Counted from the stretch's first letter, positions 12,635 through 36,013 are shown. The stretch is 64,000 nt of DNA from an uncultured Spirochaetota bacterium (GCA_964521865.1 CAZFTJ010000003.1:183745-247744); one strand, 5' to 3'. The notes: generated by a model from the letters alone, not told the origin. Numbers and translations are program-made.

Positions 12635-12637
12635 ACG

Positions 12638-13279: not shown

Positions 13280-13471
13280 GAATTCATCCTTTCTTGATGT
13301 AATGCCGCCGTCAGGCAGCTTGTTTTCCGCGATACATAAGCGGTGGTTATGTCTGCTCAACTGGATTTATTATACGGCTCGAAGAGACGCATAACAAATC
13401 AGGTGTTTACACCGGCGGTGTTATAATGAATACGACCATTGAAATATCCGGCGAACCGCGGATTGATCCCG

Positions 13472-13714: not shown

Positions 13715-13800
13715 GAACTGTGCCCGTGGCTGCCCCACATGAAGGGTTTCCTGCCCCCCGCAACATGCGTTTATCGTTCTGAGGGCGAGGATTATCTTTT

Positions 13801-16987: not shown

Positions 16988-17013
16988 AAAATCTTAATTC
17001 TGAGGAAGGAAAA

Positions 17014-19020: not shown

Positions 19021-19863
19021 GTGGACTGTAAATCTGTGCTGATATACGGATACGGGAACCCGGGACGTCAGGACGACGGCCTGGGCCCGGCGATGGTAGA
19101 GCAGATAGAGCGTCTCGGCTTCGGCTTTGTGGAGACGGATGCGAACTATCAGCTGAGTATTGAGGATGCCGCTGAAATGGCGGCGCACGACTTTGTCGTT
19201 CTCATAGATACGACGGTTCAGGATGTCGACTGTTTTTCAATCCGTAAGGTGCTGCCTGCTTCCGCTATCACCTTCACCAGTCATCTTGTCGACCCTGAAT
19301 CCATCGTGGCCCTGTGCGATGATGCATTCGGCAGGGTGCCCGATGTATGGATTATTGGCATCAGGGGATACGAGTTCGAGTTCACAGAGGGCTTTACCGA
19401 AAGGGCACAGAAGAACTACCGGAAGGCGTTTGTTTTTATAACTCAACTATTACGTATATATGGGGAAAGAATTATGGCGACCACGAAAAACGAGGAAAAA
19501 ACAGTATTAATTATTGATGACGATGCCGATATCAGGGCCTCGATACGGATAGTGTTGGAGGCTGCCGGTTTTTCAGTCGGAGAGGCGGGGGACGGAGAAG
19601 AGGGCTTGAAAGTCGCCCAGAAGGTCAATCCGGAGGCAGTCATTGTCGATCTGATGATGGAAACGGTCGATGCGGGCAGCAGGGTATCGGCAAAGCTGAA
19701 AGAATCTGGGTTCAAGGGACCGATCTACCTGCTCAGCGCTGCCGGGGATACGGTCCGCTACAACATCGATGCCAAGGACCTCGGCCTCGACGGTATTTTC
19801 CAGAAGCCGATCAACCACGAGGTCCTCATCAGCACGCTGAAGACGAAGCTCAATATCAAATAA
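19021..19863 (+). CDS. hoxW: Hydrogenase maturation endopeptidase HoxW continuing in frame into a CheY-like receiver (REC) domain
   Basis: Residues 1-150 carry protease motifs (GYGNPGRQDDGLG; conserved Asp in VVLIDT; His in TSHLVD). With no stop codon, the frame continues into a complete REC domain from ATG 19474 (LIIDDDADIR, VIVDLMME, LLSA, FQKP). GGGGAAAGA lies just upstream of 19474, so independent initiation of the REC part is also possible. Confidence 0.7.
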   Translation: MDCKSVLIYGYGNPGRQDDGLGPAMVEQIERLGFGFVETDANYQLSIEDAAEMAAHDFVVLIDTTVQDVDCFSIRKVLPASAITFTSHLVDPESIVALCDDAFGRVPDVWIIGIRGYEFEFTEGFTERAQKNYRKAFVFITQLLRIYGERIMATTKNEEKTVLIIDDDADIRASIRIVLEAAGFSVGEAGDGEEGLKVAQKVNPEAVIVDLMMETVDAGSRVSAKLKESGFKGPIYLLSAAGDTVRYNIDAKDLGLDGIFQKPINHEVLISTLKTKLNIK

Positions 19864-20208
19864 TCCCGCCGCTTTGGGAAACCGGGGCTTTGAAAAAACA
19901 GGCAATCGATTTGACTCTGTGTATATCGTGGGCCCGGCTCCTTTTTTCACATCGGGTATGAAGGCCGGGTTCGGGTAATCGGTACGGACGTGTGGCGAAG
20001 GTTTTTCGAGCCCCGCAGCTCTTCCCATATCCCGCATCACTATTACGAAACAAAAGCAGAACCTGAAAACTTTCAATCGCAAATTTGTTTTTTCACGTAA
20101 AATCGTATGTCGATGCAACAATAAACCCAAATCATAAATTTATTTTCTTGTATTTATTTACCAGGTGCGTACAATTATGAGTAATCACTCTTTTCAAGGA
20201 GGTGTACC

Positions 20209-21945
20209 ATGAAGTTCAAAACATTCATCGTCATTTTTATCGCACTGGCAATGATTTTTTCAGTGCAGGCCGTCTTTGCCGGCGGCAAGAAGAAAGAGGA
20301 GGCTGCTCCCGCAGCAGCTCCTGCCGAGGAAAAGGCCGCACCGGCCGAAAAGGAGAAGGCTCCTGAAAAAAAGGAGGCTCCCGTACCAGCGCAGGTACTG
20401 GTATTCGGCAGCAGCGGCGATGCAGCCCGGTTGGATCCTGGAGATGTGACGGACGGAGAGTCCATCCAGAGAATGGACAACATTTTTGAAGGCCTGGTTG
20501 AATACAAGGAAGGCTCCACAGAAATACAACCGGCCCTGGCTACTTCATGGGAAACGTCTGCAGACGGCAAAGAAATTACCTTTCACCTGAGGAAGGGAGT
20601 AAAGTTCCACGACGGGACCGATTTCAATGCAGATGCCGTTGTATTCTCCTTTGCCAGACAGTACGATCCGCACCATCCCTACCATCAGTACGGAGAATGG
20701 GCATACTGGGGATATATGTTCTATGATGTGGACAGAATGGAGAAGATCGACGATTATACGGTAAAACTGGTGCTTAAGAATGTCAATGCTTCGATAATGA
20801 CAAGCCTCGCAATGTTCACAACGGCTATTGTAAGCCCGACCAATGCCGAGAAATACAAGGGCGATGCCTTCAAGCATCCCTGCGGGACAGGCCCCTTCAA
20901 ATTCGTCGAATGGGTAAAGGATGACCACATCACCCTCGAGGCGAACGACAACTATTGGCGGAAAAGGCCCAAACTCGACAAGTTGATCTTCAAGGTTATC
21001 CCCGATCCTTCCGCCAGGCTTCTGGCGCTGGAGGTCGGCGAAGTCCAGGGCATAGAATATCCGAATCCTGCCGATTTCGAACGAATAAAATCCAATAAAA
21101 ATCTCAAACTGCTTACAGCTCCGGGAATGAATATCGGATACATGGCCATGAATGCCGGGTACGGATATAACGACGCCAATGAAAACGGCATACGCGATGC
21201 GGATGAACCGCTTGTCAAGACTCCCGGATATTATGAGCCCCTTACCAAGAAAAAGGTGAGACAGGCTATCAACTACGCTATTGATAAAAAGTCAATCGTG
21301 GATAATATCTACATGGGAACCGCAATAGTGGCAAAGAACGGAATGCCGCCGTTTATGCTTGGATACAACAATGATATCAAGGATTATCCCTACGACCCCC
21401 AAAAGGCAAAACAGCTTCTTGCGGAAGCCGGGTATCCGAACGGATTTGAAGTTACCCTGTACGTCATGCCGGTATCACGACCCTATATGTTCGACCCACC
21501 GAAGATCGGAGAAGCGATTCAGAGTTATCTTGCTGCCGTCGGCATCAAGGTGAAATTCTACCAGGTGGACTGGGGGACCTATCTGCAGGAAACTGAGGCC
21601 GGAAAGCATCAGATGTGTCTTCTCGGATGGACAGGCGACAACGGCGACCCCGATAATTTTATGAACGTCCTGTACGGCGCAAACGCCTGTTCGATAGGGA
21701 AAGCCGGCAACTACGGCTTCTATACCGACGAAAAAACCCAGGAGCTTCTTACCGCGGCGCTGCAGACCTACGATGTGAAGAAAAGGGCAGAGTACTATAA
21801 GGAAGCGCAGGTACGAATACATGAAAGTGCGAACTGGGTATATATCGCTCATTCCAATCAGAATGTGGTGTTCAGGTCGAATGTGCAGGGATATGTGCTG
21901 CATCCCACATCGAGAAAGTTCTTCTACCCTGTGTGGATAAAGTAA
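20209..21945 (+). CDS. ABC transporter substrate-binding protein, Opp/Dpp/Nik family (cluster 5)
   Basis: 578 aa; signal peptide (MKFKTFIVIFIALAMIFSVQAVFA), a 45-aa Ala/Pro/Glu/Lys-rich linker, then the large bilobed binding-protein architecture. Followed by two permeases and two ATPases. Substrate (nickel vs peptide) cannot be read from sequence alone. Confidence 0.85.
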   Translation: MKFKTFIVIFIALAMIFSVQAVFAGGKKKEEAAPAAAPAEEKAAPAEKEKAPEKKEAPVPAQVLVFGSSGDAARLDPGDVTDGESIQRMDNIFEGLVEYKEGSTEIQPALATSWETSADGKEITFHLRKGVKFHDGTDFNADAVVFSFARQYDPHHPYHQYGEWAYWGYMFYDVDRMEKIDDYTVKLVLKNVNASIMTSLAMFTTAIVSPTNAEKYKGDAFKHPCGTGPFKFVEWVKDDHITLEANDNYWRKRPKLDKLIFKVIPDPSARLLALEVGEVQGIEYPNPADFERIKSNKNLKLLTAPGMNIGYMAMNAGYGYNDANENGIRDADEPLVKTPGYYEPLTKKKVRQAINYAIDKKSIVDNIYMGTAIVAKNGMPPFMLGYNNDIKDYPYDPQKAKQLLAEAGYPNGFEVTLYVMPVSRPYMFDPPKIGEAIQSYLAAVGIKVKFYQVDWGTYLQETEAGKHQMCLLGWTGDNGDPDNFMNVLYGANACSIGKAGNYGFYTDEKTQELLTAALQTYDVKKRAEYYKEAQVRIHESANWVYIAHSNQNVVFRSNVQGYVLHPTSRKFFYPVWIK

Positions 21946-21972
21946 GATAACCGTACTGTGCATAATCTATTC

Positions 21973-22003
21973 GCCGGCAAAGGGGACGCTGTCCTTTTGC
22001 CGG
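21973..22003 (+). terminator. Imperfect stem-loop between the binding-protein and permease genes (possible intra-operon attenuator)
   Basis: GCCGGCAAAGGGGAC-gct-GTCCTTTTGCCGG, about 12 bp stem with one bulge. No T-run directly after it, but a T8 run lies at about 22055. Confidence 0.3.
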
Positions 22004-22128
22004 TGAAATTATGAATGAGAGGCCTCATCCGAAGATAAAAAATGTGTCCGGGAGGGCACTTTTTTTTATTAAAAGTATTGATGAGAGACAGCTTTAAAAA
22101 ATGGACTGAATAAGACTGGTGTCGATAC

Positions 22129-23133
22129 ATGAAATGGTATATTACAAAGCGCCTGCTCATGCTTGTGCCCGTACTGCTGGGAGTTTCAATTCTTTCATTT
22201 TCCCTGATTCAACTCGCACCTGGAGACCCTGCAATAACGATGGCGGGCGAGCACGCATCACCACAAACAATCAATGCAATAAGAGAAAAATACGGACTGG
22301 ATAAACCGATTACAACCCAGTACTGGATCTGGCTGAAAAAAGTCCTGCACGGCGATATGGGACGCTCCATCGTTTCCAACGAATACGTTATGAAAGAAAT
22401 ACTTCATAGATTTCCCAATACCGTTGAGCTTACCTTCTGTGCAATGGCGATCGCCATACTTGTCGGTTCTTTGGCCGGAATCGTCTCAGCTTCCAGGCAG
22501 TACTCTGTTCTCGATTATTCAACAATGGGAGTCGCTCTCTTCGGGGTCTCAATGCCCGTTTTCTGGCTTGGAATTATGCTCATGATGATTTTCGGCGTGT
22601 TTCTACGGTGGCTCCCCATAGGCGGTCGCATCGATTCGCTTATTCCCTTCAAACGAATCACCGGTTTCTATCTGCTTGACAGCATCATTACATGGAACGG
22701 CCCTGCTTTTATAAGTACTATCCGATATTTAATCCTGCCCTCCGTCGCTCTCGGCACCATCCCCATGGCGACGATCGCCAGAGTGACCAGGTCGAGTATG
22801 CTGGAGGTATTGAGGCAGGATTTCATACGTACCGAGCGTGCAAAAGGATTATCCGAACGTCTGGTCATCTATAAACACGCGGCGAGAAATGCATTGCTTC
22901 CCGTCATTACGGTTATCGGATTGAATTTCGGTTTGCTTCTTGCCGGTGCTATTCTCACAGAAACAGTCTTCTCCTGGCCCGGAATAGGAAGATACGTGAT
23001 AAACGCAGTACGCATGCGTGATTATCCCGCTGTGCAGGGGTGCGTACTGTTCTTTGCTTTTATGTTCGTCATCGTTAATCTGATTACGGACATACTCTAT
23101 GTATTCATCGATCCGAGAATTAAATACAGGTAG
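22129..23133 (+). CDS. ABC transporter permease (DppB/NikB-like)
   Basis: 334 aa, six hydrophobic helices, permease signature region (IARVTRSSMLEVLRQDFIRTERAKGL). Confidence 0.88.
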   Translation: MKWYITKRLLMLVPVLLGVSILSFSLIQLAPGDPAITMAGEHASPQTINAIREKYGLDKPITTQYWIWLKKVLHGDMGRSIVSNEYVMKEILHRFPNTVELTFCAMAIAILVGSLAGIVSASRQYSVLDYSTMGVALFGVSMPVFWLGIMLMMIFGVFLRWLPIGGRIDSLIPFKRITGFYLLDSIITWNGPAFISTIRYLILPSVALGTIPMATIARVTRSSMLEVLRQDFIRTERAKGLSERLVIYKHAARNALLPVITVIGLNFGLLLAGAILTETVFSWPGIGRYVINAVRMRDYPAVQGCVLFFAFMFVIVNLITDILYVFIDPRIKYR

Positions 23134-23143
23134 ACCCAACGCC

Positions 23144-24025
23144 ATGGAAAAAAAGAAAGAAACCAGAACAGCAGAAGTAATTAGACGGCTGAGATACAAC
23201 AAGTCGGCGACGTTCGGTCTGGTCATCCTCATTATTCTGATCATGTGTGCTATCTTCGCAAACGTAATTGCTCCCAATAACCCGATCCCCTCACCGCCGG
23301 ATCTAGCCAATAAGTTAAAGCCCGGGTTCTGGAGCGCACAGGGCCTGAAGGGCAAACCGCTCGGAACCGATGCCCTCGGACGGTGCGTTCTCAGCAGAAT
23401 AATCTACGGAACCAGGGTCAGCTTGAGCGCCGGTTTTGTTGCCGTCGGAATCGCCATGATCCTCGGCATTACCTTTGGAACAATTGCGGGTTATTTCGGA
23501 GGATGGGTCGATGCAACGATAATGAGACTGGTGGATATTATGTTTGCATTCCCCGCGCTGCTTCTGGCAATCGTAATTGTCACCATTATAGGCCAGGGTC
23601 TGAGCAAAGCGATGATCGCCATCGGCATTGTGTACACCCCGCAGATGGCGCGAATTATCAGAAGCTCGGTACTCTATATCAAGGAAATGGAGTACATAGA
23701 AGTGCAGACAGCGCTGGGATCGCGAAGCCTGCGGATTATTTTTCGTCATGTTCTGCCGAACAGCGTTGCTCCGGTAATCGTATACGGAACCCTGATGCTG
23801 GCGACCGCAATTCTTGACTGTGCGGCTCTGGGTTTTTTAGGCCTGGGAGCCCAGCCTCCCACACCCGAATGGGGTGCGATGCTCTCAAAAAGCTACTCCT
23901 ATATAGTGAGCGGTGCATGGTGGGCGGCAACTTTTCCCGGAATCGCCATCCTCCTTTCAGTGCTCGGACTCAACCTGCTGGGAGACGGTTTGCGGGATAT
24001 TCTTGACCCGAGATTGAAAACATAG
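23144..24025 (+). CDS. ABC transporter permease (DppC/NikC-like)
   Basis: Hydrophobic multi-pass protein with a conserved permease loop ([17 protein letters not shown]). Start placed at ATG 23144 (MEKKKE) just after the upstream stop. Confidence 0.86.
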
Positions 24026-24033
24026 AACAGATC

Positions 24034-24996
24034 ATGAAAGAGCTACTGAACGTAAAAAACCTGAACACCTCCTTCTTTACACATGAGGGAACGGCAAAAG
24101 CTGTGGACAGGGTCAGTTTCACCATCAAACAGGGAGAAACGCTTGGACTTGTCGGAGAATCCGGATGCGGAAAAAGCGTTACCGCTCTCTCAATAATGAG
24201 GCTGGTTCAGCATCCTCCCGGTAAGATTCTGGGAGGAGAAATTATTTTTAAGGGGAAGAACCTCCTGGATCTGTCGGAGAAAGAAATGAGAAAGGTACGG
24301 GGAAAAAAAATTTCCATGATTTTCCAGGAGCCCATGACGTCGCTGGACCCCGTATTCACCATCGGTCATGAAATAATGGAATCCATCAGACTGCATCAGG
24401 GATTAAATAAGGCGCAGGCAAAAAAAGAGGCAATAAAAACTCTTTCAATTGTCGGGATACCGGATGCAGAAAAAAGGATAAACTGCTACCCGCATGAGCT
24501 TTCCGGCGGAATGCGGCAGAGAGCGATGATCGCAATGGCACTGGCGTGCAACCCGGCACTGCTCATTGCCGATGAACCCACAACTGCGCTTGATGTCACC
24601 ATTCAGGCGCAGATCCTGAGATTGATCAATGAAATGAAGGATAGGTTCAACGCTTCGGTACTGCTGATAACACATGATCTGGGGGTGATTGCCCAAATGT
24701 GTGATGATGTTGCAGTGATGTATGCGGGGAATATTGTTGAGTATACCGATGTGGACACGCTGTTCGGCAATCCGCTGCATCCCTACACCATGGGACTTAA
24801 TAAATCCATACCAAGGCTCGATGTAAATACGAAACGGCTCGAAACAATAAAAGGCCTGGTGCCGAATCTCCTTGCCATACCCTCAGGATGCTCGTTTCAT
24901 CCAAGGTGCAATTTCTGCTTTGAAAAATGTGTTACCGAACCTCCCGAATTAAAGAAGATCGATTCCAATCATCTTGTAAAATGCTATTTGTATTAA
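24034..24996 (+). CDS. ABC transporter ATP-binding protein (DppD/NikD-like)
   Basis: Walker A GESGCGKS, signature LSGGMRQR, Walker [14 protein letters not shown]-loop ITHD; C-terminal oligopeptide-type extension. Confidence 0.9.
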
Positions 24997-25009
24997 GGGG
25001 ACCGTCGGA

Positions 25010-25972
25010 TTGGAAAAATTGATTGAAGTAAAAAATCTGAAAAAATGGTTTTGGACGGGGAAAAAAGGACCGATGGGAAAAGAGGCTGTGAGGGCCGTCG
25101 ATGACGTCAGCTTCTCTATAGAAAGACGGGAAGTTCTCGGGCTCGTCGGCGAATCGGGCTGCGGGAAGACAACGTGCGGGAAAGTAATCCTGAAAATATT
25201 GGAACCGACCGACGGCAGCATTTTTTTTAACGGAAGAGAAATAACTCATTTGAAAAAAAGGGAGATGATGCCGATCAGGCGCAGGATGATGGTCATTTAT
25301 CAAGACCCCTTTGGCTCTCTCGATCCGAGAATGACGATCAAATCGACAATAGCCGAGCCAATGGCAGTACATAATTGTGTGCCGAAAAAAAAGCGGGAAG
25401 AAAAGGTAATAGAAATTATGGAAAAGGTCGGGCTCACACCCGATCAGAGGTTTCGATATCCCCATGAGTTCAGCGGGGGCCAGAGACAGCGAATCGGAAT
25501 TGCACGGGCTCTGGCAATAAACCCGGATTTTATTGTTGCAGATGAATCGGTCTCGGCCCTGGACGTTTCTATTCAGGCTCAGATCATAAATTTATTGCAC
25601 GATCTGCAGGAGGAATTCGGGATAACCCTTCTCTTTATAGCACACGATTTGAGTGTCATAAAACACATAAGCGACCGCATTGCTGTTATGTACCTGGGCA
25701 CGATCGTTGAAAAGGCTTCCAAAAAAGTCATCTTTGACGACCCGAAACACCCGTATACCAGAGCGCTCCTTTCGGCAATACCCGTCCCCAACCCGAGGCT
25801 CAAAAAAAAGGGTGAAATTTTAACGGGCGATGTTCCAAGCCCGGTCAACCCCCCTTCGGGATGCAGGTTTCATCCGAGATGCCCGTACAAGATGGATATA
25901 TGCGACAAAAAAGTACCGGAGTTGAAGGAAATAACTCCGAATCAGTTTGTGGCGTGTTTCCTGTATGCCTGA
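25010..25972 (+). CDS. ABC transporter ATP-binding protein (DppF/NikE-like)
   Basis: Walker [10 protein letters not shown], signature FSGGQRQR, Walker [13 protein letters not shown]-loop IAHD. Confidence 0.9.
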
Positions 25973-25993
25973 ACCAGGACCGGTAGCCCGCAT

Positions 25994-26548
25994 TTAAGGT
26001 TTGACAAGCATTGGGACGGCTAATTCCTCGGCCTTGTCTTTCCCGAAAAGAAGCTCCACCAGCGTGAGCGCGAATTCGATCGCCGTTCCCGGCCCGCGGC
26101 TCGTCACACAGTTTCCGTCGATAACGACCCGCGAATCGACCTCCTCCCTGTTCTCAAGGACATTACTGAAATCCGGATGACCCGTTGCCCTGCGTCCCTT
26201 CAAAAGCCCGTGGTGCCGGAGCACGACCACCGGAGCCGCGCAAATCGCCGCGAACAGCCTGCCCTCGTCCGCCTGGCGCTTCAATAGAATTAAAAGCTCT
26301 TTTGAATCTCTCAGATGCTCTGCTCCGGGCATCCCGCCCGGGAGGGCGATGCAGTCGTAGATTTCGCCCGTGCAGTCCGTTATACGAGCATCGGCAAAAA
26401 TCTTTACACCGCGCGATGCCGTGATCAGGAGGTCGCCCACCGATGCAACGGTGACCTCAGCCCCCGCCCTGCGAAGCACATCGATAATGCATACGGCCTC
26501 TATTTCCTCGCTGCCGTCTGCGATCGGCACGAGAATCTTTTTAGACAT
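25994..26548 (-). CDS. DJ-1/PfpI (ThiJ) family protein
   Basis: 184 aa; class-I glutamine-amidotransferase-like fold with the nucleophile-elbow cysteine in AAICAAP. Confidence 0.8.
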   Translation of the reverse strand: MSKKILVPIADGSEEIEAVCIIDVLRRAGAEVTVASVGDLLITASRGVKIFADARITDCTGEIYDCIALPGGMPGAEHLRDSKELLILLKRQADEGRLFAAICAAPVVVLRHHGLLKGRRATGHPDFSNVLENREEVDSRVVIDGNCVTSRGPGTAIEFALTLVELLFGKDKAEELAVPMLVKP

Positions 26549-26789
26549 CTGTTTCTCCTCCGACGATTATATTTTCAGGTAACGCGTTATTTTCTATGCA
26601 ATTACATTTTAAGCCTTTCGTGATGGAGTATCTTTCAGTACAAAGACAGTACGGCACAAACCTCCAGTGTGTGAGCACCCGTGCGGCACAGTTGCAATCA
26701 AAGAGGAACGAACGTACGGATTCGGCGACTCCGAGCTCTACAAAGCATGTGTCCACACCCCGAGACTCCGCAATGACGGACCGCATATA

Positions 26790-27851
26790 TTAACCCAATA
26801 CCGTCTCCTCAATTTCTTTCAGCTGGTCGCTGTACAGCAGGGCGATGTTGGCCCCGTAATCCGCGACGAGGCGGAGTATATTCCTCGGGCTTCCAGGTTC
26901 ATCATACCCGTTTATCCTGTCGCCTGCATCGCCGAGACCGGGTAAAATGTATGCGAGTCTGTTCAGCACAGGGTCCATCCAGATTGTATATACATGAACG
27001 TTCTCGACAGCCCGGATTATACGAAGCGCACCCTTCAACACCGAAATGACGTTGAAAAAATTGATCGAGCGCGGCTTTATACCCTGATCGAGAAGGTACT
27101 TGACGATAGTCACCAGGCTTCCACCCGTCGCATTCATGGGATCGGCGAAAAAAAGGTCTTTTCCGTCGAGCGCTGCAGTATCGAAGTACGATCGCTCCAG
27201 GTTGAGAATATACTCCATATTATGCTCCTCCTTCGAGTCGTCTCGCGCTATCTTGAAGAGTGCGAAGGGTGTAAGGTAGTTATGGGACGAATATTCCTGA
27301 ATTTCTTTCGACATGATCATCGAAGGAAGAAGCGCTCCCCTGAGCATAACGCACATTACACTCTGTTCAACACGGCTATCGATATCCGGAATTTTATGGA
27401 CCGCATAGTTTGCAACCGGCACTTCGACGGGAGTCTTCACCACGATATAGTTTTTTTTCTTGTGCTTCACGTTCCCGAATGCAAAGTTGAACAAGAGCTC
27501 GTATGCGCGTTGAATATAGTAGATGAATTCGGGGCGTTCGGTTTTCTCATCGCGAAGCTTTGCAATAAGGCGCGAAGCCTCACCGTGTATGGATTCATGC
27601 GTCTCAAATGAGTACACGTGTATACGATCCTCTCTGCTGATTATCTCCTGCATCATATCTCCCATTCTGTTATACAGATCGATGAGCTCGGTGATCGACT
27701 TCTCTCTCCTCTGCAGCACCCGCACGTTGGAGAGAACCTGAAAAACGGAGATCGCCTGCTCATACATCCCGTTGACCTGTTCTATATTTCCCCTGTCCTG
27801 CTCGGTGAGGTATCCGTCCAGATCTTTTGCTTTGAGAATCACATGGTCCAT
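26790..27851 (-). CDS. Uracil phosphoribosyltransferase-like protein with an N-terminal extension of about 100 aa
   Basis: C-terminal two-thirds is colinear with UPRT (PRPP-binding loop FFADPMNATGGSL; uracil-binding ILPGLGDAGDR). The N-terminal 100 aa has no recognisable domain. Confidence 0.65.
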   Translation of the reverse strand: MDHVILKAKDLDGYLTEQDRGNIEQVNGMYEQAISVFQVLSNVRVLQRREKSITELIDLYNRMGDMMQEIISREDRIHVYSFETHESIHGEASRLIAKLRDEKTERPEFIYYIQRAYELLFNFAFGNVKHKKKNYIVVKTPVEVPVANYAVHKIPDIDSRVEQSVMCVMLRGALLPSMIMSKEIQEYSSHNYLTPFALFKIARDDSKEEHNMEYILNLERSYFDTAALDGKDLFFADPMNATGGSLVTIVKYLLDQGIKPRSINFFNVISVLKGALRIIRAVENVHVYTIWMDPVLNRLAYILPGLGDAGDRINGYDEPGSPRNILRLVADYGANIALLYSDQLKEIEETVLG

Positions 27852-28066
27852 GTTTTTCTCCTCGTGTTTTCCAGATTGTACAGGAGAAACGAAGCACGGT
27901 CAATACGAAAGTACACATCCGCGGAAGACGGTATTGCATGCACATACGGAACACCGGATTTCAATAAAACAATGTCAATTGTACTTGCATAATTCATATA
28001 TTTGGTATACGGTGATACATCATAAGAGGTTGTACATTTAATTAATCCATGAGAGGAGGCTGGTAC

Positions 28067-29263
28067 ATGAATATCAAACAAAAGTCACTGATGTGCGCTG
28101 TTGTTGCAGTGCTCTTTGTCGCTGGTCTGTTTGCGGCGCCTGGAACGGCCCAGGCGAAGCTTAAAGGCAGTGTTGCCGTTGTGCTCGATGTCGGCGGACG
28201 CGGGGATTTGTCCTTTAACGACATGGGGTTCAAAGGCACAGACAAGGCGGCTGAGGATTTCGGCTTGAAGATGGTGGAGATTCAGAGCGCCTCGGCAGCC
28301 GATTATCTTCCCAATGTTCGAAATGCGGCCAGGTCGGGCAGATTCGATCTTGTCATTGCGGTCGGGTTTCTGCTGACCGACGCGGTCTCAACGGTTGCGA
28401 AGGAGTTTCCAGATCAGAAGTTTATGATAATCGATTCGGTGGTCGATTCACCGAATGTAATGTCCATCGTCTTCAAGGAAAACGAAGGCTCCGCCCTCGT
28501 CGGAGCGCTCGCAGCAATGACCGCGGCCCATTACGGCTACCCCTATGTCGGGTGTGTGCTCGGTATTGAAATTCCGGTACTGTACCATTTCGAAGCCGGT
28601 TTCAGGTACGGCATCGACTGGGGTAACAAGAGGTACGCACAGGTCAAGGGAAAAAATCCGAATATAGGGCTTCTGTACACCTATACGGGCACTTTTGACG
28701 ATATCGCAAAGGGAAAAGAGGCATCCAAGGCGATGCTCGCCCAGGGAGCCGGACTTATTTACAATGTAGCCGGACCGCTTGGCATAGGCGACCTGCAGGC
28801 CGTTACCGAAGCGATAGAGGCGAAGGGAAAAGAGGCGGGCCCGCCTTTTATGATCGGTGTGGATGCGAATCAGGACTGGATGGGAGACGGCCACCGGGTT
28901 CTTGCCAGCATGCTGAAGCGGGTCGACAACGGCTGCTACAGTGCTGTCAAGGCAGTTGTCGACGGCACTTTCAAAGGAGGGCTCGTTGTCATGGGCCTCG
29001 ATTCAAAAGGTGTTGCCATGAGCAAGTATGAAGACCTCGACACATTCATGGAGTTCGGTATTGAGTCGAAAAAGATCACCGAACAGGACAAGGGAAGAAT
29101 AACTTCCAACTGGAAGCGTATGCGAAACGATCTTCCGGAATTCATCTGGCGGGCGGTTGACGATCTGGAAAAGCAGATTATTTCCGGGCAGGTCAGCGTT
29201 CCGACGGCGAACACGCTCGAGGAGATGAAATCCGTCAGAACGAAGTATCCGCTAAAACGATAA
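28067..29263 (+). CDS. BMP-family (PnrA-like) nucleoside-binding ABC transporter lipoprotein or periplasmic binding protein
   Basis: Signal peptide, then a Bmp-type core (GSVAVVLDVGGRGDLSFNDMGFKG, DLVIAVGF, KFMIIDS). Start at ATG 28067 preceded by GGAGG. Confidence 0.8.
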   Translation: MNIKQKSLMCAVVAVLFVAGLFAAPGTAQAKLKGSVAVVLDVGGRGDLSFNDMGFKGTDKAAEDFGLKMVEIQSASAADYLPNVRNAARSGRFDLVIAVGFLLTDAVSTVAKEFPDQKFMIIDSVVDSPNVMSIVFKENEGSALVGALAAMTAAHYGYPYVGCVLGIEIPVLYHFEAGFRYGIDWGNKRYAQVKGKNPNIGLLYTYTGTFDDIAKGKEASKAMLAQGAGLIYNVAGPLGIGDLQAVTEAIEAKGKEAGPPFMIGVDANQDWMGDGHRVLASMLKRVDNGCYSAVKAVVDGTFKGGLVVMGLDSKGVAMSKYEDLDTFMEFGIESKKITEQDKGRITSNWKRMRNDLPEFIWRAVDDLEKQIISGQVSVPTANTLEEMKSVRTKYPLKR

Positions 29264-29277
29264 ACTCCGGAAACTAC

Positions 29278-29308
29278 GGGGGCAGCAATGCTGCCCCCTT
29301 TCCCTGTT
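29278..29308 (+). terminator. Rho-independent terminator/attenuator between the binding-protein gene and the permease genes
   Basis: Perfect 9-bp stem GGGGGCAGC-aat-GCTGCCCCC followed by TTTCCCTGTT, 15 nt after the stop codon. Confidence 0.55.
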
Positions 29309-29451
29309 CACCAAAACGTCCTGTGTAGAATCGGCCTCCCCACACCTCAAAGGAATAAATTGGACGTGAAAATCCTGCACCTCATCATGCAGGATACACA
29401 GCGCATAGAAGTATGAGGGGAAAATATAGGGCAAAGGACAAATAACCTCGA

Positions 29452-30519
29452 ATGAAGGATTGGAAGAGGGCTGCGCTCGAACGGACCGAAGAGCTGAGAA
29501 AATCGATCACTGCGGGAGTTATCGGTTTCTGCGTGGGCGCTCTCATCATACTGGCATACGGGTACAATCCCCTGAGCGCATATACTGCCCTTCTCAGCGG
29601 CGCCTTCGGCGACCTGTACGGGTTTTCGGAGTCCATCGCAAACGCCACTCCACTGATACTCACCGCCCTCACTTTTGCAGTTGGATTCAGAGGCGGCATG
29701 TTCAATATCGGGGCCGAAGGCCAGCTGTACCTGGGGGCGCTTGCTGCCGTTTCCGTAACCCTGCTGCGACTGCCGCCTGCAGTTGCCTTTGTGTCGAGTA
29801 TTTTTGCAGCAGCTCTTGCCGGTGTAATCTGGAGTATGCCTGTTGCGGTTTTGAAGGCGACCAGAGGGGTCCACGAAGTTATATCCACAATAATGCTCAA
29901 CTGGGTTGCCCATTTTTTTTCCTTCTACCTTATCTCCACAGTACTTGTCGACCCCCAGAGAGCCGAGAAAACCGTCAGCATTGCCGAAGGCGCACGTTTC
30001 GCCCTGCTCGTGCCGGGAACCAGTCTCAGCTTCGGCATCTTGGTCTCACTTGCTGCGGCAGCTCTTGTATGGCTGCTTCTCTGGCGGACGGTCATCGGCT
30101 TTGATATACGGGCTATGGGCTACAATCAGAATGCCGCCAGGTATGCGGGTATCGAAAAATGGAGGGTGATACTTTCAGTATTCGTGATGGGTGGAATAAC
30201 AGCCGGACTCGGAGGAGCTGTGCATGTGATGGGCCGTCCACCTACCTACGCGGTGTACAGCGGCATACCGGCAATTAGAAATCTCGGTTTCGACGGTCTC
30301 GCTGTAGCAATGATCGGAAGAAACCATCCGGCAGGCATCATCTTTGCCGCAATTTTTTTCGGCGGTTTGCTGGCCGGAGGGAGGATGATGCAGCTCTTCG
30401 CCCAGGTACCGCTCGAGATGGTTCGCGTACTGGAAGGAGTCGTCGTGCTCTTTCTCGCAATACCCGAGCTGTCACGAATATTCTCTTTTTTTAAAAGACT
30501 CAAAGCCCAAATCCCCTAA
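29452..30519 (+). CDS. ABC transporter permease (nucleoside/simple-sugar type)
   Basis: 355 aa, 8-10 hydrophobic helices; second gene of the Bmp-type cassette. Confidence 0.8.
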   Translation: MKDWKRAALERTEELRKSITAGVIGFCVGALIILAYGYNPLSAYTALLSGAFGDLYGFSESIANATPLILTALTFAVGFRGGMFNIGAEGQLYLGALAAVSVTLLRLPPAVAFVSSIFAAALAGVIWSMPVAVLKATRGVHEVISTIMLNWVAHFFSFYLISTVLVDPQRAEKTVSIAEGARFALLVPGTSLSFGILVSLAAAALVWLLLWRTVIGFDIRAMGYNQNAARYAGIEKWRVILSVFVMGGITAGLGGAVHVMGRPPTYAVYSGIPAIRNLGFDGLAVAMIGRNHPAGIIFAAIFFGGLLAGGRMMQLFAQVPLEMVRVLEGVVVLFLAIPELSRIFSFFKRLKAQIP

Positions 30520-30528
30520 GACGGATAC

Positions 30529-31443
30529 ATGGAGGAATGGATGAGCCCGGCCTCCCTTTTCATCGGAATATTCACGGGGTCGCTTTATGCAATGGTCCCG
30601 ATCACCCTCACTGCCACGGGAGAAACCGTCGGTGAATCGGCCGGATTATTCAATATCGGGCTCGAAGGCATAATCCTTCTCAGCGCTATGACGGGTGCTC
30701 TCGGCGCAGAGGCGTGGGGCGCTTTCATGGGCCTGGTAACCGGTCTTGCGACCGGATTCGCCATGGGCCTCATCTTCGGGCTGATCAACACCTACTTCAA
30801 AGGCGTACAGCTTATTACGGGAGTCGGAATCAATCTCGCCGCCATCGGCATGGTATCTTTCTGGCTCATACACCTCGGTGTTCCCGGGCACCATGCGGTA
30901 CCCAAGGAAAGTCAACTGGTTGCAATTTCCACCGGAATCGGCAACATAAGTCCCATGATTCTTGTGACCATTGCACTGCCGGTTATCGTCTGGATCCTGC
31001 TCTTCAGGACGAAACTCGGCCTGAAAATCAGGGCGGTGGGGGAGAATCCGCAGGCAGCGGATGTTGCGGGCATCAATGTGCACCTGCTCAGACTTTTTTC
31101 TACGGCTTCAGGGGCATCCCTCGCCGGACTTGCAGGCGCCTATATCAGCGTGGCGTGGATGGGCTCCGTAACAAAGGGAATTTCAGCCGGCAGAGGCTTT
31201 ATTGCGCTCGCAACCGTTGTTTTCAGCGGATTGAACCCGCTCCTGGTTCTTTTAGGCGGCTTTATTTTCGGATTTTTCGATAATCTTGCGGTGTGGATAT
31301 CCACTATGCCCGCGGTTCAGAGCGTTGTTCCATGGCAGCTCGTTTCCATGGCCCCCTATATAGTGACACTGCTCATTGTGGCCGGTGTCATCGGCAGGGT
31401 CAGGTTTCCCGCTGCAATGGGAGCTCCGTATATGCGTGAATGA
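30529..31443 (+). CDS. ABC transporter permease (nucleoside/simple-sugar type)
   Basis: 304 aa hydrophobic multi-pass protein; paired with the preceding permease. Confidence 0.8.
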   Translation: MEEWMSPASLFIGIFTGSLYAMVPITLTATGETVGESAGLFNIGLEGIILLSAMTGALGAEAWGAFMGLVTGLATGFAMGLIFGLINTYFKGVQLITGVGINLAAIGMVSFWLIHLGVPGHHAVPKESQLVAISTGIGNISPMILVTIALPVIVWILLFRTKLGLKIRAVGENPQAADVAGINVHLLRLFSTASGASLAGLAGAYISVAWMGSVTKGISAGRGFIALATVVFSGLNPLLVLLGGFIFGFFDNLAVWISTMPAVQSVVPWQLVSMAPYIVTLLIVAGVIGRVRFPAAMGAPYMRE

Positions 31444-31466
31444 GGTCGAAAAGGAGTGCCGGGTTT

Positions 31467-32999
31467 ATGGGTGATGACGCCATGCGTGACGATACCGATG
31501 TCATTTTACGGGGAGAGGGAATCTGCAAGGGATTTCCAGGTGTATGGGAGCATCTCATTCTCGATCACATCGACATCGATGTGCGGGTAGGTGAAATACA
31601 TACGCTGCTCGGAGAAAACGGAGCCGGAAAAACCGTTATCGCAAACTGCCTCTCCGGATTTTATAGCCTCACCGAGGGGCAGATATACGTAAAAGGGCAA
31701 CCGGTTCATCTGAAGTCTCCGAAAGACGGCCTCAAGCACCGCATAGGGATGGTACATCAGGAACTGGCTCTTGTCAAACCCTTTACCGTGGCCCAGAACA
31801 TTGCGATCGGCCTGCCGGGGTACGATCTCTCCTTCCCCCTCCGTGATGTGGAAAGCAGGGTTCGTGAATTGTCGAAGAGATTCAATCTGCGTATCGATCC
31901 AACAGCGCGGATCGAGGACCTTTCCGCCGGAGAACAGCAGCGAGCCGAAATCATCAAGGTCCTGTACCATGATCCGGAGATTCTCATTCTCGATGAGCCG
32001 ACATCGCTTATATCCGTGGATGCCCGGAACCTGTTTGAAGTACTCCGCAATATGGCGAAAATGGGATACGGCATACTGTTTATAACCCATAAGATCGAGG
32101 AAGCCCTCGAGATGGGCGACCGGGTTACCGTGCTCCGCCTCGGAAAGCTCATGGGAACCAGGGAATCTTCACGGACAGACAAAGAGGAGCTGGTAAGGCT
32201 CATGTTCGGAGAACACGAGCCGGCACAGCTCGAGCGAAAACCGGTGCGTTCGAAAAAGGTGGTGTTTGAAGTTCAGAACCTCGAAGCAGCCGGAATGGAT
32301 GAAGAGCCTGCGCTCCGTGGTGTGTCTTTTTCCATCGCAGAAGGGGAAATTTTCGGTATTGCGGGAGTTTCGGGAAACGGCCAGAGTGAGCTCGCCGAGG
32401 TGTTGACAGGGCTGCGAAGAGCTACAGGCGGGAGGATGTTGATCGATGGAAAAGATTTTACGAACAGCTCGCCGGGAAAAATAATCGAGGCCGGGATCGC
32501 TCATATTCCCGAAAAGAGACGTGAGGTCGGCGTGATTGAAGCAATGACCGTCGCAGAGAACGTCGTCTTGAAGGATGTCAGGATCCCACCGTTTTCGAAA
32601 CGCTCGTTTCTCAATGTTCCCTGTATTACAAACCATACGGAGGAAATCGTCGAGAGCTTCGGCGCCATTGTGTCGGACCTTTGGAAAACTCCGACCAGAA
32701 TCCTATCAGGAGGAAACATACAGCGTCTCATACTGGGGAGGGAAACCTGGCGCAAACCCCGCTTCATCGTCGCCGCATACCCGACGCAGGGACTCGACGC
32801 AAAGGCGATCGAGCACACCTGGGAACTGTTTATGGAGCTGAGAAAAACGGGCACATCCTTCCTGCTGATTTCCGAAGATCTCGATGAGATAATGGCGCTG
32901 AGCGACCGCATCGCAGTTATGTCGCAGGGAAACATTATCAAAATACTCGACCACGCGAAAAGAGAAGAGATCGGCATGCTGATAGCCATAGGCCATTGA
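31467..32999 (+). CDS. ABC transporter ATP-binding protein with duplicated ATPase domains
   Basis: First domain: Walker A GENGAGKT, signature LSAGEQQR, Walker B LILDEPTS. Second domain is degenerate (GVSGNGQSEL; LSGGNIQR). Start at ATG 31467 preceded by AAAAGGAG. Confidence 0.82.
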   Translation: MGDDAMRDDTDVILRGEGICKGFPGVWEHLILDHIDIDVRVGEIHTLLGENGAGKTVIANCLSGFYSLTEGQIYVKGQPVHLKSPKDGLKHRIGMVHQELALVKPFTVAQNIAIGLPGYDLSFPLRDVESRVRELSKRFNLRIDPTARIEDLSAGEQQRAEIIKVLYHDPEILILDEPTSLISVDARNLFEVLRNMAKMGYGILFITHKIEEALEMGDRVTVLRLGKLMGTRESSRTDKEELVRLMFGEHEPAQLERKPVRSKKVVFEVQNLEAAGMDEEPALRGVSFSIAEGEIFGIAGVSGNGQSELAEVLTGLRRATGGRMLIDGKDFTNSSPGKIIEAGIAHIPEKRREVGVIEAMTVAENVVLKDVRIPPFSKRSFLNVPCITNHTEEIVESFGAIVSDLWKTPTRILSGGNIQRLILGRETWRKPRFIVAAYPTQGLDAKAIEHTWELFMELRKTGTSFLLISEDLDEIMALSDRIAVMSQGNIIKILDHAKREEIGMLIAIGH

Positions 33000-33012
33000 T
33001 AGCACCGAGCAG

Positions 33013-35490
33013 TTATTCCCGCGCCGTTTGAAAAGGCCACATCTTGAGCCCGCCTTCAAGTATTCGAATATTCGTGAACCCCTGTGCCTTGAGAATAAGC
33101 GACGCCTGATAGGACCTGCTTCCAGTCTCGTCGATCAGTATAATACCACGGTCGCGGGGTATCTCATCTATTCTTCTCCTCAGGCTTTCGAGGGGAATGA
33201 GCTCGACTCCCGGAATTCGCTCCTCCTCGAATTCACGCGGAAGCCGCACGTCGATACAGGTGCAGGTCTTTTTTGCCTCTATAACTTCCCGTGCATCCAT
33301 TGCCATGATTCCCTCAAACACACCGTCGAGCTTATTCTGCATGACATGTGCTGCGACAATAATACTGTCGATGGCCCTGGAGTATGAAGGCGCATACCCG
33401 AGATCGAGAGATGCAATATCGTCTATTATACCGTCATTGGCGATAACGGTCGACGCAACGTCAATCCTCTTGGCCACATCACCTTTGCCGACTATCTGAA
33501 CCCCGAGCAGCTTCCTCGTTTTTTTATCACCAATCATCTTGACGTGTATCATCTGCGATTCAGGGATAAACTCATCCCTGTCGAAATCGGGAACATATAC
33601 CGTCACCGGATGGAATCCCGCTTTACTGGCCTCTTGCTCGTTCAACCCCGTCTTCGCGATATGGAATTCAAAAACCCTGATAATGATTGTACCGGTAACG
33701 GCGGGGAAAATCGCTTTCTTTCCCGCCGCATTCGTACCGGCCACCCTCCCCTGCTTGTTTGCAATCGAACCGAGAGGAATATAACAGGGTTTTTTAGATA
33801 CTGCATGAACCACCTCACAGCAGTCACCGGCTGCATAGATGGATGCATCGCTTGTCTGCAACCGCTCGTTAACGGCAATCGCACCCGTGGAGCCGATTTT
33901 CAGCCCGGCCTTTTTCGCAAGCGTAACACTCGGTACAAATCCTGTTGCAATAATAACGAGATCAGCCGGAAGGCGGAACCCGTCAAGCTGGACCGATTCA
34001 ACACCTTCTGTTCCAATAAATTCCTGGACTTCGGTATTCGTTATAATTCGTACACCGTTGAGCTCCAGATGGTTGCGCACGAGGGCTCCCATTTCACGGT
34101 CGAGAAAGGGCAGAATCTCATGATCTTTCTCAACAATTGTTACACGCGCTCCGGATGCGGTCAGCGCTTCTGCGGTTTCAATGCCAATATTACCGCCTCC
34201 AAGCACAACGATATCCTTTGCAAGATTGTTGGTAAGGAAACGTTTTATTCTTTCGGAATCGGTTACACCGTGCAGCACGAAGATATTCTGCAATCCAATA
34301 CCCCTGATATCGGGAAGAGACGGTCTGCTTCCAGTCGAGATAATAAGAATGTCGTAGGGTTCGGTAAAGACCCGTTCTGTGAGAATATCGCGGTAGTGTA
34401 TTACCTTCTCTTCCCTGTCTATCTTTATCACTTCAGAGAGGTTCTTTATCTCTATACCCTTCACACTCCTGAAAAACTCCGTCGCATTCTCAAATCCAGA
34501 GTAGAACCCGAACAGCTCACGCTGCTGCTTCAGCTTTCCGGCGATATAGTACGGAAGTGCACATCCCGCATATGCAAGAAAATGGTCCTTTTCAAAAACG
34601 GTGATCTTTGCCTCCGGGTCGAGCCTCCGCGCACGTGAAGCCGCTTTCGGCCCCGCGGCGACGCCGCCTATGACAACGATTCGCTTTTTAAACCGTTTTT
34701 TCGATTCATCGACCTTTTCCGTTTCTGCAACACGAACCAGCGGAAGCGTAAAGATGAACGCAGTTCCTTCGTTCAGCCTGCTCTCAACCCGTATCGAGCC
34801 GCCGCATATCTCTATGATCTTTTTAACGATTGTAAGGCCGAACCCGGTCCCTTTTTTGTCGAAGAGACGTGCATTTTCGGCTCTAAAAAATTCTTCGAAA
34901 ATTTTATCGCTCACTTCAGCGGGTATGCCGATACCGTTGTCTTCAACGCGTGTAACGATTTCACCCGTATCTTCGCTGTACTGTACAGTAAGTATGACGT
35001 GACCTTCGCGGGATGTATACTTTAGGGCATTCTCAAGGAGATTGTACACGGTATGTTTCAGTCCGACTCTGTTCCCCAGAACGATCAGGAGCTTGTTGGG
35101 AATATCACTGACAAAATGAATGCTCTTTTCCCTGATTTTTTCTCTCAACTCGTCCACCGCTTCGATACAAATTTCGGAAAAATCCACCTCCAGGAGCTCG
35201 ACCTCGCCGCTTCGAAAGCGTTCGAGCTCCAGGATGTCCATGATAAGATCCTGCAGGTCCCTGCTCCCTCTCTTTATCGACTCCACAACACGAAGCTGTT
35301 TGTTGTTCAGCTTTCCTGCATACTCGCCGAGCAGGGTTTCTACACTGAAAATTATGGTCGCAATGGGAGATTTCAACTGATGAGCGCTGATCCTGAGATA
35401 CTCCCTGCGGTCCCGAAGAAGCCGTTCGACCTCCTCCCTGTACCGCTGGACCTGCTTTTCAAGATCGTTTATTTTTTCTTCAGCAGACAT
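33013..35490 (-). CDS. Histidine kinase core (HisKA + HATPase_c) fused to a CoA-disulfide-reductase/NADH-oxidase-like flavoprotein and a C-terminal rhodanese-like domain
   Basis: 825 aa. Residues 1-245: coiled coil, H-box (SAHQLKSPIATI), N/G boxes (NLLENALKYT, DNGIGIP, GTGFGL). Residues 250-700: FAD/NAD Rossmann motifs (IVVIGGVAAGPKAASRARR; VVLGGGNIGIETAEAL) with the redox cysteine in AGCALPYY. Residues 730-825: rhodanese fold whose catalytic-Cys position reads Asp (ILIDETGSRS). No transmembrane segment. Confidence 0.75.
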   Translation of the reverse strand: MSAEEKINDLEKQVQRYREEVERLLRDRREYLRISAHQLKSPIATIIFSVETLLGEYAGKLNNKQLRVVESIKRGSRDLQDLIMDILELERFRSGEVELLEVDFSEICIEAVDELREKIREKSIHFVSDIPNKLLIVLGNRVGLKHTVYNLLENALKYTSREGHVILTVQYSEDTGEIVTRVEDNGIGIPAEVSDKIFEEFFRAENARLFDKKGTGFGLTIVKKIIEICGGSIRVESRLNEGTAFIFTLPLVRVAETEKVDESKKRFKKRIVVIGGVAAGPKAASRARRLDPEAKITVFEKDHFLAYAGCALPYYIAGKLKQQRELFGFYSGFENATEFFRSVKGIEIKNLSEVIKIDREEKVIHYRDILTERVFTEPYDILIISTGSRPSLPDIRGIGLQNIFVLHGVTDSERIKRFLTNNLAKDIVVLGGGNIGIETAEALTASGARVTIVEKDHEILPFLDREMGALVRNHLELNGVRIITNTEVQEFIGTEGVESVQLDGFRLPADLVIIATGFVPSVTLAKKAGLKIGSTGAIAVNERLQTSDASIYAAGDCCEVVHAVSKKPCYIPLGSIANKQGRVAGTNAAGKKAIFPAVTGTIIIRVFEFHIAKTGLNEQEASKAGFHPVTVYVPDFDRDEFIPESQMIHVKMIGDKKTRKLLGVQIVGKGDVAKRIDVASTVIANDGIIDDIASLDLGYAPSYSRAIDSIIVAAHVMQNKLDGVFEGIMAMDAREVIEAKKTCTCIDVRLPREFEEERIPGVELIPLESLRRRIDEIPRDRGIILIDETGSRSYQASLILKAQGFTNIRILEGGLKMWPFQTARE

Positions 35491-35602: not shown

Positions 35603-36013
35603 TCAGTCGAGGTCGAACGAAAAAAAGGAGGGAAGCGCCATGTGCACTCCCTTCTGCCCGCCTATTCTGTTCGTCAGGTCCCGCAATACCTTCTCTTCCC
35701 CCCGCACCACTATAACTTCCATGCAGTAATCATGCGTTATATGAACATGATTGGCAAAGTGTATAGACTGCTGATAGTGATGCTGAATTTCCGTGAGAGC
35801 CTCTGAAAGATTGTGCATATGATGATTATAAATTATGGTAATCGAGCCCATTACCTGCCCCGTTTTTTCGCTCTTTTCAAGAGATAGCTTTTCCCTTATG
35901 AGATCCCGAATAGCCTCACTGCGGTTGTGAAAACCGTGCGCAGCAATGAAGTCATCAAAGGATGAAAGCAGGTTTTTTTCCATGGATACACCAAACCGAA
36001 TAAGCTCAGACAT
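35603..36013 (-). CDS. nikR: Nickel-responsive transcriptional regulator NikR
   Basis: 136 aa. N-terminal ribbon-helix-helix (FHNRSEAIRDLIRE) and C-terminal metal-binding domain with the NikR His/Cys pattern (HHMH...HVHITHDYC). Confidence 0.82.
   Translation of the reverse strand: MSELIRFGVSMEKNLLSSFDDFIAAHGFHNRSEAIRDLIREKLSLEKSEKTGQVMGSITIIYNHHMHNLSEALTEIQHHYQQSIHFANHVHITHDYCMEVIVVRGEEKVLRDLTNRIGGQKGVHMALPSFFSFDLD

Follow-up and report, generated by a model that had tools for sequence, protein, structure and literature searches.

A flavoprotein histidine kinase and a receiver-fused HoxW protease as a candidate two-component system for [NiFe]-hydrogenase maturation in an uncultured Spirochaetota bacterium

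A 64,000-nucleotide stretch of DNA from an uncultured Spirochaetota bacterium (GCA_964521865.1, CAZFTJ010000003.1:183745-247744), referred to below as the window, contains two fusion genes in a hydrogenase neighbourhood (Table 1). One of them, hoxW-REC, closes a hoxFUYH (group 3d) operon and encodes a maturation protease joined to a receiver domain (HoxW-REC). The other encodes a soluble histidine kinase (HK) joined to a flavoprotein related to CoA-disulfide reductase (CoADR) and to a rhodanese domain (RHD). The first-pass annotation of the window had proposed that the two proteins form a phosphorelay coupling hydrogenase activation to cellular redox or sulfur state, and had placed them in a nickel/hydrogenase neighbourhood; the latter is borne out by the hypEDCFBA, hoxFUYH and nikR genes found with Pfam and NCBIfam. 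On its gene set and its Pfam and NCBIfam matches, the hox operon is assigned to the group 3d NAD(P)-linked bidirectional [NiFe]-hydrogenase type, and homologous loci carry the precomputed PF27537 HoxH family. The C-terminus of HoxH contains the sequence DPCLSCATH (DPCxxCxxH motif) followed by an extension of 24 amino acids (nt 18942-19013), so that a normal protease substrate is present.

The N-terminal part of HoxW-REC matches the NCBIfam family TIGR00072 (hydrogenase maturation protease) with 50.2 bits against a cutoff of 47.45 and covers profile positions 1-143 of 145, and the C-terminal part matches Pfam Response_reg (PF00072) with 69.2 bits (cutoff 30.2). No match of HoxW-REC to the Pfam HycI model was found at E <= 0.001, and the protease half is therefore identified from the NCBIfam family, the fold match and the conserved metal residues. 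An AlphaFold2 model built on 94 homologues (predicted local distance difference test, pLDDT, 86.9) consists of two well-folded domains with a long helix (residues 127-155) and a weak linker between them. Foldseek matched the N-terminal half of the model to HycI (5zby), the hydrogenase-2 peptidase 5ttx and HybD (1cfz), and the C-terminal half to RR468 and Spo0F. All 94 full-length HoxW-REC homologues share the protease residues D18/D19, D63 and H88; by position, we take these to be the equivalents of the HybD metal triad E16/D62/H93. The receiver residues D166/D167, D210, S239 and K262 are invariant in the same homologues, and conservation is visibly higher in the receiver half than in the protease half. 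The loop after the phospho-acceptor reads DLMMETVDAGS, not the usual D-x-x-M-P-x-x-x-G. Profile score, fold, metal triad and genomic position together assign the N-terminal half to the HoxW/HybD/HycI endopeptidases, and score and key residues identify the C-terminal half as a bona fide receiver.

Replacement of the phospho-acceptor Asp by Glu is a classical phosphomimetic change. Two HoxW-REC proteins among the 175 homologous loci that were compared with the window (L-numbered below) contain Glu at this position, one in Bradyrhizobium sp. dw_78 (L038 10462-10830; ILAELM) and one in an alphaproteobacterial metagenome-assembled genome (MAG) (L050 10462-10830; ILTELM). The acidic pair of these two proteins is degenerate (DED, DAD), and other alphaproteobacterial members have DAD instead of DDD. 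The L038 and L050 proteins look like natural phosphomimetic or pseudo-receiver variants.

The second fusion gene encodes a protein with the Pfam domains HisKA (residues 28-95; 40.5 bits), HATPase_c (140-252; 97.9 bits), Pyr_redox_2 (270-560), Pyr_redox_dim (606-707) and Rhodanese (738-818). Transmembrane segments and PAS or GAF domains are absent from the protein, and a coiled coil leads directly into the DHp helix that bears His37. The only candidate sensor is the C-terminal CoADR/persulfide-reductase-like flavoprotein with its rhodanese domain. All 110 full-length kinase homologues retain His37, Asn154 and the flavoprotein Cys310, and the G boxes are conserved; judged from its domains and residues, this is a kinase core of the standard HisKA type.

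The C-terminal part of 560 residues aligns end to end with NoxA-3 (6pfz; 440 bits), CoADR-RHD (3icr), CoA-persulfide reductase (8a56) and Npsr (3nta). Its score with NCBIfam TIGR03385 is 423.6 bits, below the equivalog cutoff of 578.8. The FAD domain is preserved, and Cys310 sits in an SxxxC(G/A)LPY motif (AYAGCALPYY) and is kept in 110/110 homologues. The active-site residue of the rhodanese domain is Cys in 71 of these homologues, Ser in 23, Asp in 15 and Gly in 1, and Asp is the residue in the window kinase (Asp787) and in its 15 closest relatives. This spread, set against the invariant Cys310, suggests that the catalytic Cys was lost repeatedly; the flavin/Cys310 site appears to be the constrained part, and the persulfide-carrying rhodanese appears dispensable in this lineage. 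The flavoprotein half is thus a predicted relative of the CoADR-RHD and persulfide reductases that scores below the TIGR03385 cutoff and lacks the rhodanese Cys, and it is named CoADR-like here.

The first-pass annotation had counted exactly one orphan kinase and one orphan receiver, and a single classical kinase/regulator pair elsewhere in the window. This count agrees with a census in which the REC domain and the kinase core were searched with phmmer against all six-frame open reading frames (ORFs), and essentially all ORFs of at least 150 amino acids were scanned with Pfam. The HAMP-HisKA-HATPase_c kinase gene and the OmpR/CopR-type regulator gene abut and are the only further two-component genes in the window. 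The term phosphorelay does not hold. The Pfam search of the flavoprotein kinase found no Response_reg or Hpt domain, and no Hpt domain was reported by Pfam in the window ORFs of at least 150 amino acids; because the kinase contains neither a receiver nor an Hpt domain, the architecture is that of a one-step His-to-Asp system. The sulfur-state part of the proposal is weakened for this organism, in which the catalytic Cys of the rhodanese is Asp.

Both fusion families are widespread. The search with HoxW-REC gave 829 matches, the best 120 of which are all full length, and that with the kinase returned more than 100 clusters of full-length proteins, 41-90% identical to it. In a scan of one genome per species, REC-fused HoxW was found directly after hoxH in at least 10 phyla. 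The carriers include Spirochaetota, Hydrogenedentota, Nitrospirales, Kuenenia, Victivallales, Acidobacteriota, Polyangiaceae, Verrucomicrobiota, Phycisphaerae, Ktedonobacterales and several Alphaproteobacteria, among them the isolate Bradyrhizobium sp. dw_78. Bacteroidales and others contain protease-only HoxW. Stand-alone receivers are 47-64% identical to the HoxW receiver among 50%-identity representatives, where the close clade counts as one representative. Full-text searches of a literature collection with little coverage of subscription journals found no description of either fusion, which does not prove that none exists.

Co-occurrence of the two genes in related genomes had been set beforehand as a test of the pairing, and the pairing was not refuted by it; in several other loci the fusion genes lie directly next to each other in convergent orientation. 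In L001/L002, the kinase and HoxW-REC genes lie tail to tail with a gap of 135 bp, and hoxHYUF and hypABFC lie beyond; the identity to the window proteins is 55% for the kinase and 66% for HoxW-REC. In L019, a Victivallales MAG, the order is nikR-hoxFUYH-HoxW-REC, followed after 174 bp by a convergent kinase gene whose product has the full HK-CoADR-RHD architecture by Pfam. The same convergent neighbours are present in L100, a metagenome contig of the L019 lineage. The window genes are also oriented tail to tail, but 13.1 kb of mainly transporter genes lie between them, as in close relatives (88-90% identity). The orthologues in L001, L019 and L100 have no such stretch between them. One metagenome contains both a nikR-kinase-hyp locus (L166) and a hox-HoxW-REC locus (L172), whose GC contents of 0.444 and 0.472 cannot show that they belong to one genome.

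The receivers that directly flank the kinase family have a DxMM(E)..G-type loop after the phospho-Asp, without the usual Pro at D+4, and fall into two types. Type A receivers (LDVMMxxxxEG) are stand-alone proteins in L095, L099, L107 and L173, with a DVML variant in L091. Type B receivers (D(L/F)MMEExDSG) are stand-alone in L095 and L107 and fused to HoxW in L001, L019, L100 and the window. An unrelated stand-alone receiver lies about 1 kb upstream of the kinase in L168. The other receivers in the 175 loci mostly have the canonical M-P loop, and the other response regulator of the window is of the standard OmpR type, unlike the HoxW-REC loop. The shared DxMM loop ties the window receiver to the kinase family independently of adjacency. 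Stand-alone receivers with DxMM- or DxIM-like loops were also observed beside neither family, in L031 (1087-1530, minus strand), L032 (975-1241) and L033 (757-1185), where they lie 5-9 kb from hox operons; in L032 and L033 the receiver gene comes just after a kinase gene without a CoADR domain, and HoxW is protease-only.

The kinases encoded near HoxW were counted with self-built hidden Markov models of kinases and receivers at loci with at least 3 kb of downstream flank. A kinase gene is present within about 2.5 kb downstream in 8/32 loci with REC-fused HoxW and in 0/25 loci with protease-only HoxW (Fisher one-sided p = 0.006). The sensors of these kinases differ. L001 and L019 have CoADR-RHD, L020 and L026 a module with six transmembrane segments and GAF, L028 a transmembrane sensor, and L027 and L066 a kinase with REC; L171 contains a 405-amino-acid kinase gene 1.7 kb downstream of HoxW-REC. 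This enrichment of kinases with sensors that vary by lineage suggests that the HoxW receiver is a real two-component output whose input module was swapped in evolution. The flavoprotein kinase is the candidate input for HoxW-REC in the lineage of the window.

The genes within 10 kb of the kinase gene were compared across the kinase family. The nikR gene is immediately upstream of the kinase gene in the window, L003, L086 and L166. In L166 the order is nikR-kinase-hypABFCDE, with the hyp genes immediately downstream, and in L118 hypFDE lies upstream of the kinase. NuoE/F-like genes are near the kinase in L119. A NAD-dependent formate dehydrogenase, composed of a Fer2_4/NADH-G/molybdopterin alpha subunit and a NuoE-F fusion, is encoded near the kinase in L095 (405-8232), L107 (1-5938) and L175 (10001-17480); in L095 and L107 the order is kinase, type A receiver, type B receiver and formate dehydrogenase. 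A group-3b-like [NiFe]-hydrogenase operon (Fer4_22, HydG-like, small subunit, large subunit of 439 amino acids) was found in L173 at 12490-16966. It ends with a stand-alone type A receiver of 130 amino acids that is 35% identical to the HoxW receiver; the receiver gene lies 3 bp from a convergent HK-CoADR-RHD gene, followed by hypFCDE. An mrp/mbh-like membrane complex is encoded directly upstream of the kinase in six loci, L001 (1-9817), L089, L090, L173, L174 and L175. Its genes comprise two Proton_antipo_M genes, MbhD/E, MnhB, MNHE, MrpF, PhaG, NuoH-like, Fer4_11, HydG-like and Fer4_22. These six loci belong to the clade of 51-60% identity, and the arrangement recalls the Mbh/Mbs-NSR sulfur-response gene sets of Thermococcales.

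The remaining features of the window are given in Table 1. The nikR gene lies 112 bp upstream of the kinase gene on the same strand; NikR was considered as a partner of the kinase and ruled out, as it has no receiver domain. The Dpp/Nik-family transporter that follows hoxW-REC was rejected as a proven nickel transporter because no NCBIfam equivalog cutoff was reached (DppA, 418 against 1005; NikA, 242 against 393). The same Dpp/Opp/Nik-family transporter also follows hox in L170. The hypA gene (13472-13738, minus strand) encodes 88 residues that cover the first 66 of 116 TIGR00100 positions, and the zinc-finger half is seemingly missing; similarly short HypA genes of 80 amino acids are present in L001 and L170. 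Scans for promoters and terminators at the 3' end of hoxW-REC, at nikR and at the kinase gene gave nothing above the shuffled expectation that would settle the operon structure. An ORF of 806 amino acids (49589-52009, minus strand) has no Pfam family and contains a sub-threshold spermine-synthase-like stretch only (E = 0.007), and a protein of 736 amino acids (2345-4555, minus strand) combines an MFS transporter domain with C-terminal HEAT repeats.

Table 1. Coordinates of the genes and domains in the 64-kb window; indented rows are parts of the protein above them.
Feature	Position (nt)	Strand	Basis and remarks
hypE, hypD, hypC, hypF, hypB, short hypA	7816..13738	-	Pfam, ORF reading, NCBIfam hypA; machinery for the [NiFe] cofactor and nickel insertion; divergent from hox
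hoxF (NuoE-NuoF fusion), hoxU, hoxY	14454..17553	+	Pfam; NCBIfam NuoF/NuoE/HoxE-like; diaphorase module and small subunit
hoxH, [NiFe] large subunit, presumed protease substrate	17574..19016	+	NiFeSe_Hases Pfam
HoxW-REC fusion gene	19021..19863	+	280 aa; GTG start 4 nt past hoxH stop codon
 Maturation endopeptidase part, aa 7-142	19039..19446	+	TIGR00072
 Receiver domain, aa 162-273	19504..19839	+	Response_reg
 Phospho-acceptor Asp210	19648..19650	+	
Stretch separating the convergent partner genes	19864..33012	.	13.1 kb
Dpp/Nik-family ABC transporter, five genes	20209..25972	+	Pfam
DJ-1/PfpI	25994..26548	-	Pfam
UPRTase-like gene	26790..27851	-	Pfam
Bmp/PnrA-type ABC transporter	28049..32999	+	Pfam
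Soluble histidine kinase-CoADR-rhodanese fusion	33013..35490	-	825 aa; Pfam
 Kinase core, aa 1-262	34705..35490	-	His37 at 35380-35382
 Flavoprotein part, aa 269-720	33331..34686	-	redox Cys310 at 34561-34563
 Rhodanese part, aa 738-818	33037..33279	-	Asp787 replaces catalytic Cys, 33130-33132
nikR	35603..36013	-	NikR_C 87 bits; NF003381 131 bits (cutoff 105); ribbon-helix-helix, nickel-responsive
HAMP-HisKA-HATPase_c kinase	52864..54222		census
OmpR/CopR-type response regulator	54222..54896		census

We consider it about an even chance that the kinase and HoxW-REC are cognate partners in a one-step two-component system through which [NiFe]-hydrogenase maturation depends on the redox state of the cell. 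The kinase would be a soluble dimer, with the C-terminal NAD(P)H-dependent CoA-disulfide/persulfide-reductase-like flavoprotein as its sole sensory module. The redox or ligand state of the flavoprotein would set the autophosphorylation of His37, with the NAD(P)H/NAD(P)+ ratio and the CoA thiol/disulfide state, singly or together, as the likely inputs. The phosphoryl group would pass from His37 to Asp210 of the HoxW-fused receiver, and the state of this receiver would gate the action of HoxW on HoxH, in which the 24-residue C-terminal extension would be removed once nickel is inserted. Cellular redox poise would thereby determine, post-translationally, how much mature NAD(P)-linked Hox hydrogenase is present. 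The transfer of phosphate between the two proteins, the kind of signal, and what the output acts on and in which direction are our inference. Pyridine-nucleotide poise is an attractive candidate signal because the kinase family associates with NuoEF-type NAD(H)-linked enzymes, and the natural Asp-to-Glu variants of L038 and L050 hint that the phosphorylated-like state may be the working state. A broader proposal, which we hold to be less likely than not, is that this system belongs to a widespread, hitherto undescribed layer in which NAD(P)H-linked H2 and formate "electron valves" and [NiFe] maturation would be gated post-translationally by the flavoenzyme-fused kinase through DxMM receivers that are either free or fused to HoxW.

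The pairing of kinase and receiver, which the first-pass annotation had drawn from the gene content of one window, now has support from adjacency in other genomes, from the receiver subtype and from the company of hyp and nikR genes; an exclusive partnership does not stand. Several observations weigh against a cognate system, and many of them would suit two unrelated orphans, in which case the kinase would act on another receiver (a stand-alone DxMM protein of type A or a transcription factor), HoxW-REC would be served by another kinase, and their co-occurrence would be a coincidence of a hydrogenase/nickel island. In the window, 13.1 kb and 11 unrelated-looking genes, transporter genes among them, separate the two. 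Of about 30 kinase-family loci only 3 show direct adjacency, and of 32 HoxW-REC loci only 2; because L019 and L100 represent one lineage, these are only two or three independent cases. GAF, transmembrane, REC or 405-amino-acid kinases, not the flavoprotein kinase, are encoded beside many HoxW-REC loci of other phyla, and many members of the kinase family are found with stand-alone receivers (L091, L095, L099, L107, L173) or without hydrogenase genes. About a dozen kinase loci, some with short flanks, contain none of the neighbouring genes described above, for example L168 (Phycisphaerae). The identity of the DHp helix did not separate the kinases adjacent to HoxW-REC from control kinases, as distant kinases all show about 20-35%. 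The inspection covered 64 kb of the genome, on a contig of about 261 kb, and other orphan kinases or receivers may exist outside it. We nevertheless regard two unrelated orphans as unlikely, given that the fusion families are directly adjacent in L001/L002, L019 and L100, that a receiver subtype is common to both, and that the kinase is linked to nikR and hyp in the clade of the window itself.

The AlphaFold2 models also offer no structural clue to a mechanism. No confident contact between receiver and protease is predicted in HoxW-REC, whose mutual domain orientation is not predicted (predicted template modelling score, pTM, 0.55), and none between kinase core and flavoprotein, where the linker 258-266 is disordered (pTM 0.67); as the domains are confident but the geometry between them is not, no mechanistic inference is drawn from the models. 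The kinase and receiver could be a true pair of which the receiver acts in a CheY-like manner on the assembly, activity or partner binding of the hydrogenase or diaphorase, being fused to HoxW because both bind HoxH. This would agree with the unpacked receiver of the model and with L173, where a stand-alone receiver occupies the position of HoxW-REC in a group-3b-like operon and no maturation protease gene is present in the locus, so that the target of the receiver need not be a protease. It would also agree with L095 and L107, where both receiver subtypes precede a NAD-formate dehydrogenase that needs no such protease. On the other hand, a fusion to a protease with an intact metal-binding triad has been kept in at least 10 phyla, which argues for functional coupling, and a low pTM does not exclude regulated contacts; a CheY-like action seems to us distinctly unlikely. 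The receiver might instead be a structural or dimerisation module that works independently of phosphorylation, a pseudo-receiver with no kinase involved, as the Glu at the phospho-acceptor and the degenerate acidic pair in L038 and L050 and the DAD for DDD of other alphaproteobacterial proteins might suggest. The acidic pair, phospho-Asp, Ser and Lys are invariant in the window protein and 93 homologues, and kinase genes are enriched beside the fused form only, which together make a pseudo-receiver highly improbable in our view.

The predicted system shares parts with several known systems. HoxW-REC resembles HoxW, HybD and HycI (peptidase family A31) in the fold of its N-terminal 145 residues, in the Asp/Glu-Asp-His triad and in the position of its gene directly after a large-subunit gene with a C-terminal extension, whereas it differs by the addition of a C-terminal, putatively phosphorylatable receiver through a long helix. 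The characterised HoxW, HybD and HycI enzymes are single-domain proteins that are not known to be regulated post-translationally. In the CheA-CheB system and in RssB, which acts in RpoS proteolysis, a receiver likewise controls an enzyme or adaptor acting on a protein substrate, with a post-translational output; in HoxW-REC the output domain is N-terminal, in the reversed order, and would be a nickel-dependent endopeptidase. CheB is known to be autoinhibited by its unphosphorylated receiver, whereas such autoinhibition is not predicted for HoxW-REC at the pTM of its model. HoxJ-HoxA and HupT-HupR of Cupriavidus necator and Rhodobacter capsulatus are also two-component systems dedicated to hydrogenase levels. 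They sense H2 via the regulatory hydrogenase HoxBC/HupUV and a PAS kinase and have a transcriptional output via an NtrC-type regulator, whereas the window system would combine a flavoprotein sensor with a maturation protease as output.

The C-terminal 560 residues of the kinase are similar to CoADR-RHD, Npsr, CoA-persulfide reductase and NoxA-3, with the redox Cys kept. The window protein differs from these enzymes by its N-terminal HisKA-HATPase_c core, its rhodanese Asp and its sub-cutoff TIGR03385 score. Control of redox enzymes by redox or sulfur status is also found with NifL, MmoS, RegB/PrrB, ArcB and the S0-responsive SurR of Thermococcales, the targets of which are hydrogenase versus sulfur-reduction gene sets that include the CoADR-like NSR and the Mbh/Mbs complexes. 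These proteins have PAS-FAD, quinone-reactive or CxxC sensors that are N-terminal to the kinase, or are transcription factors, whereas the window kinase has a whole pyridine-nucleotide-disulfide oxidoreductase C-terminal to its catalytic domain.

[NiFe]-hydrogenase maturation is treated as a constitutive assembly line, and its known regulation is transcriptional (HoxJ/HoxA, LexA/AbrB, FNR, NikR and others). What is new here is that both the sensor module and the output domain of the putative two-component system are novel, which would imply that hydrogenase maturation is regulated. If the proposal is correct, peptidase A31 would be a new output domain of two-component systems, and a whole pyridine-nucleotide-disulfide oxidoreductase C-terminal to the kinase would be a new type of sensor. 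Both proteins are small and soluble, and the proposal is therefore directly testable in vitro. Expression of Hox hydrogenases of these lineages in other hosts may be unsuccessful without phosphorylation of the receiver or its replacement by a phosphomimetic form, and some Alphaproteobacteria appear to have made such a replacement (Asp to Glu) naturally. For the cells themselves, the system would mean that a pool of unprocessed HoxH is held and active enzyme is released on a redox cue, which would provide a fast post-translational valve for excess NAD(P)H.

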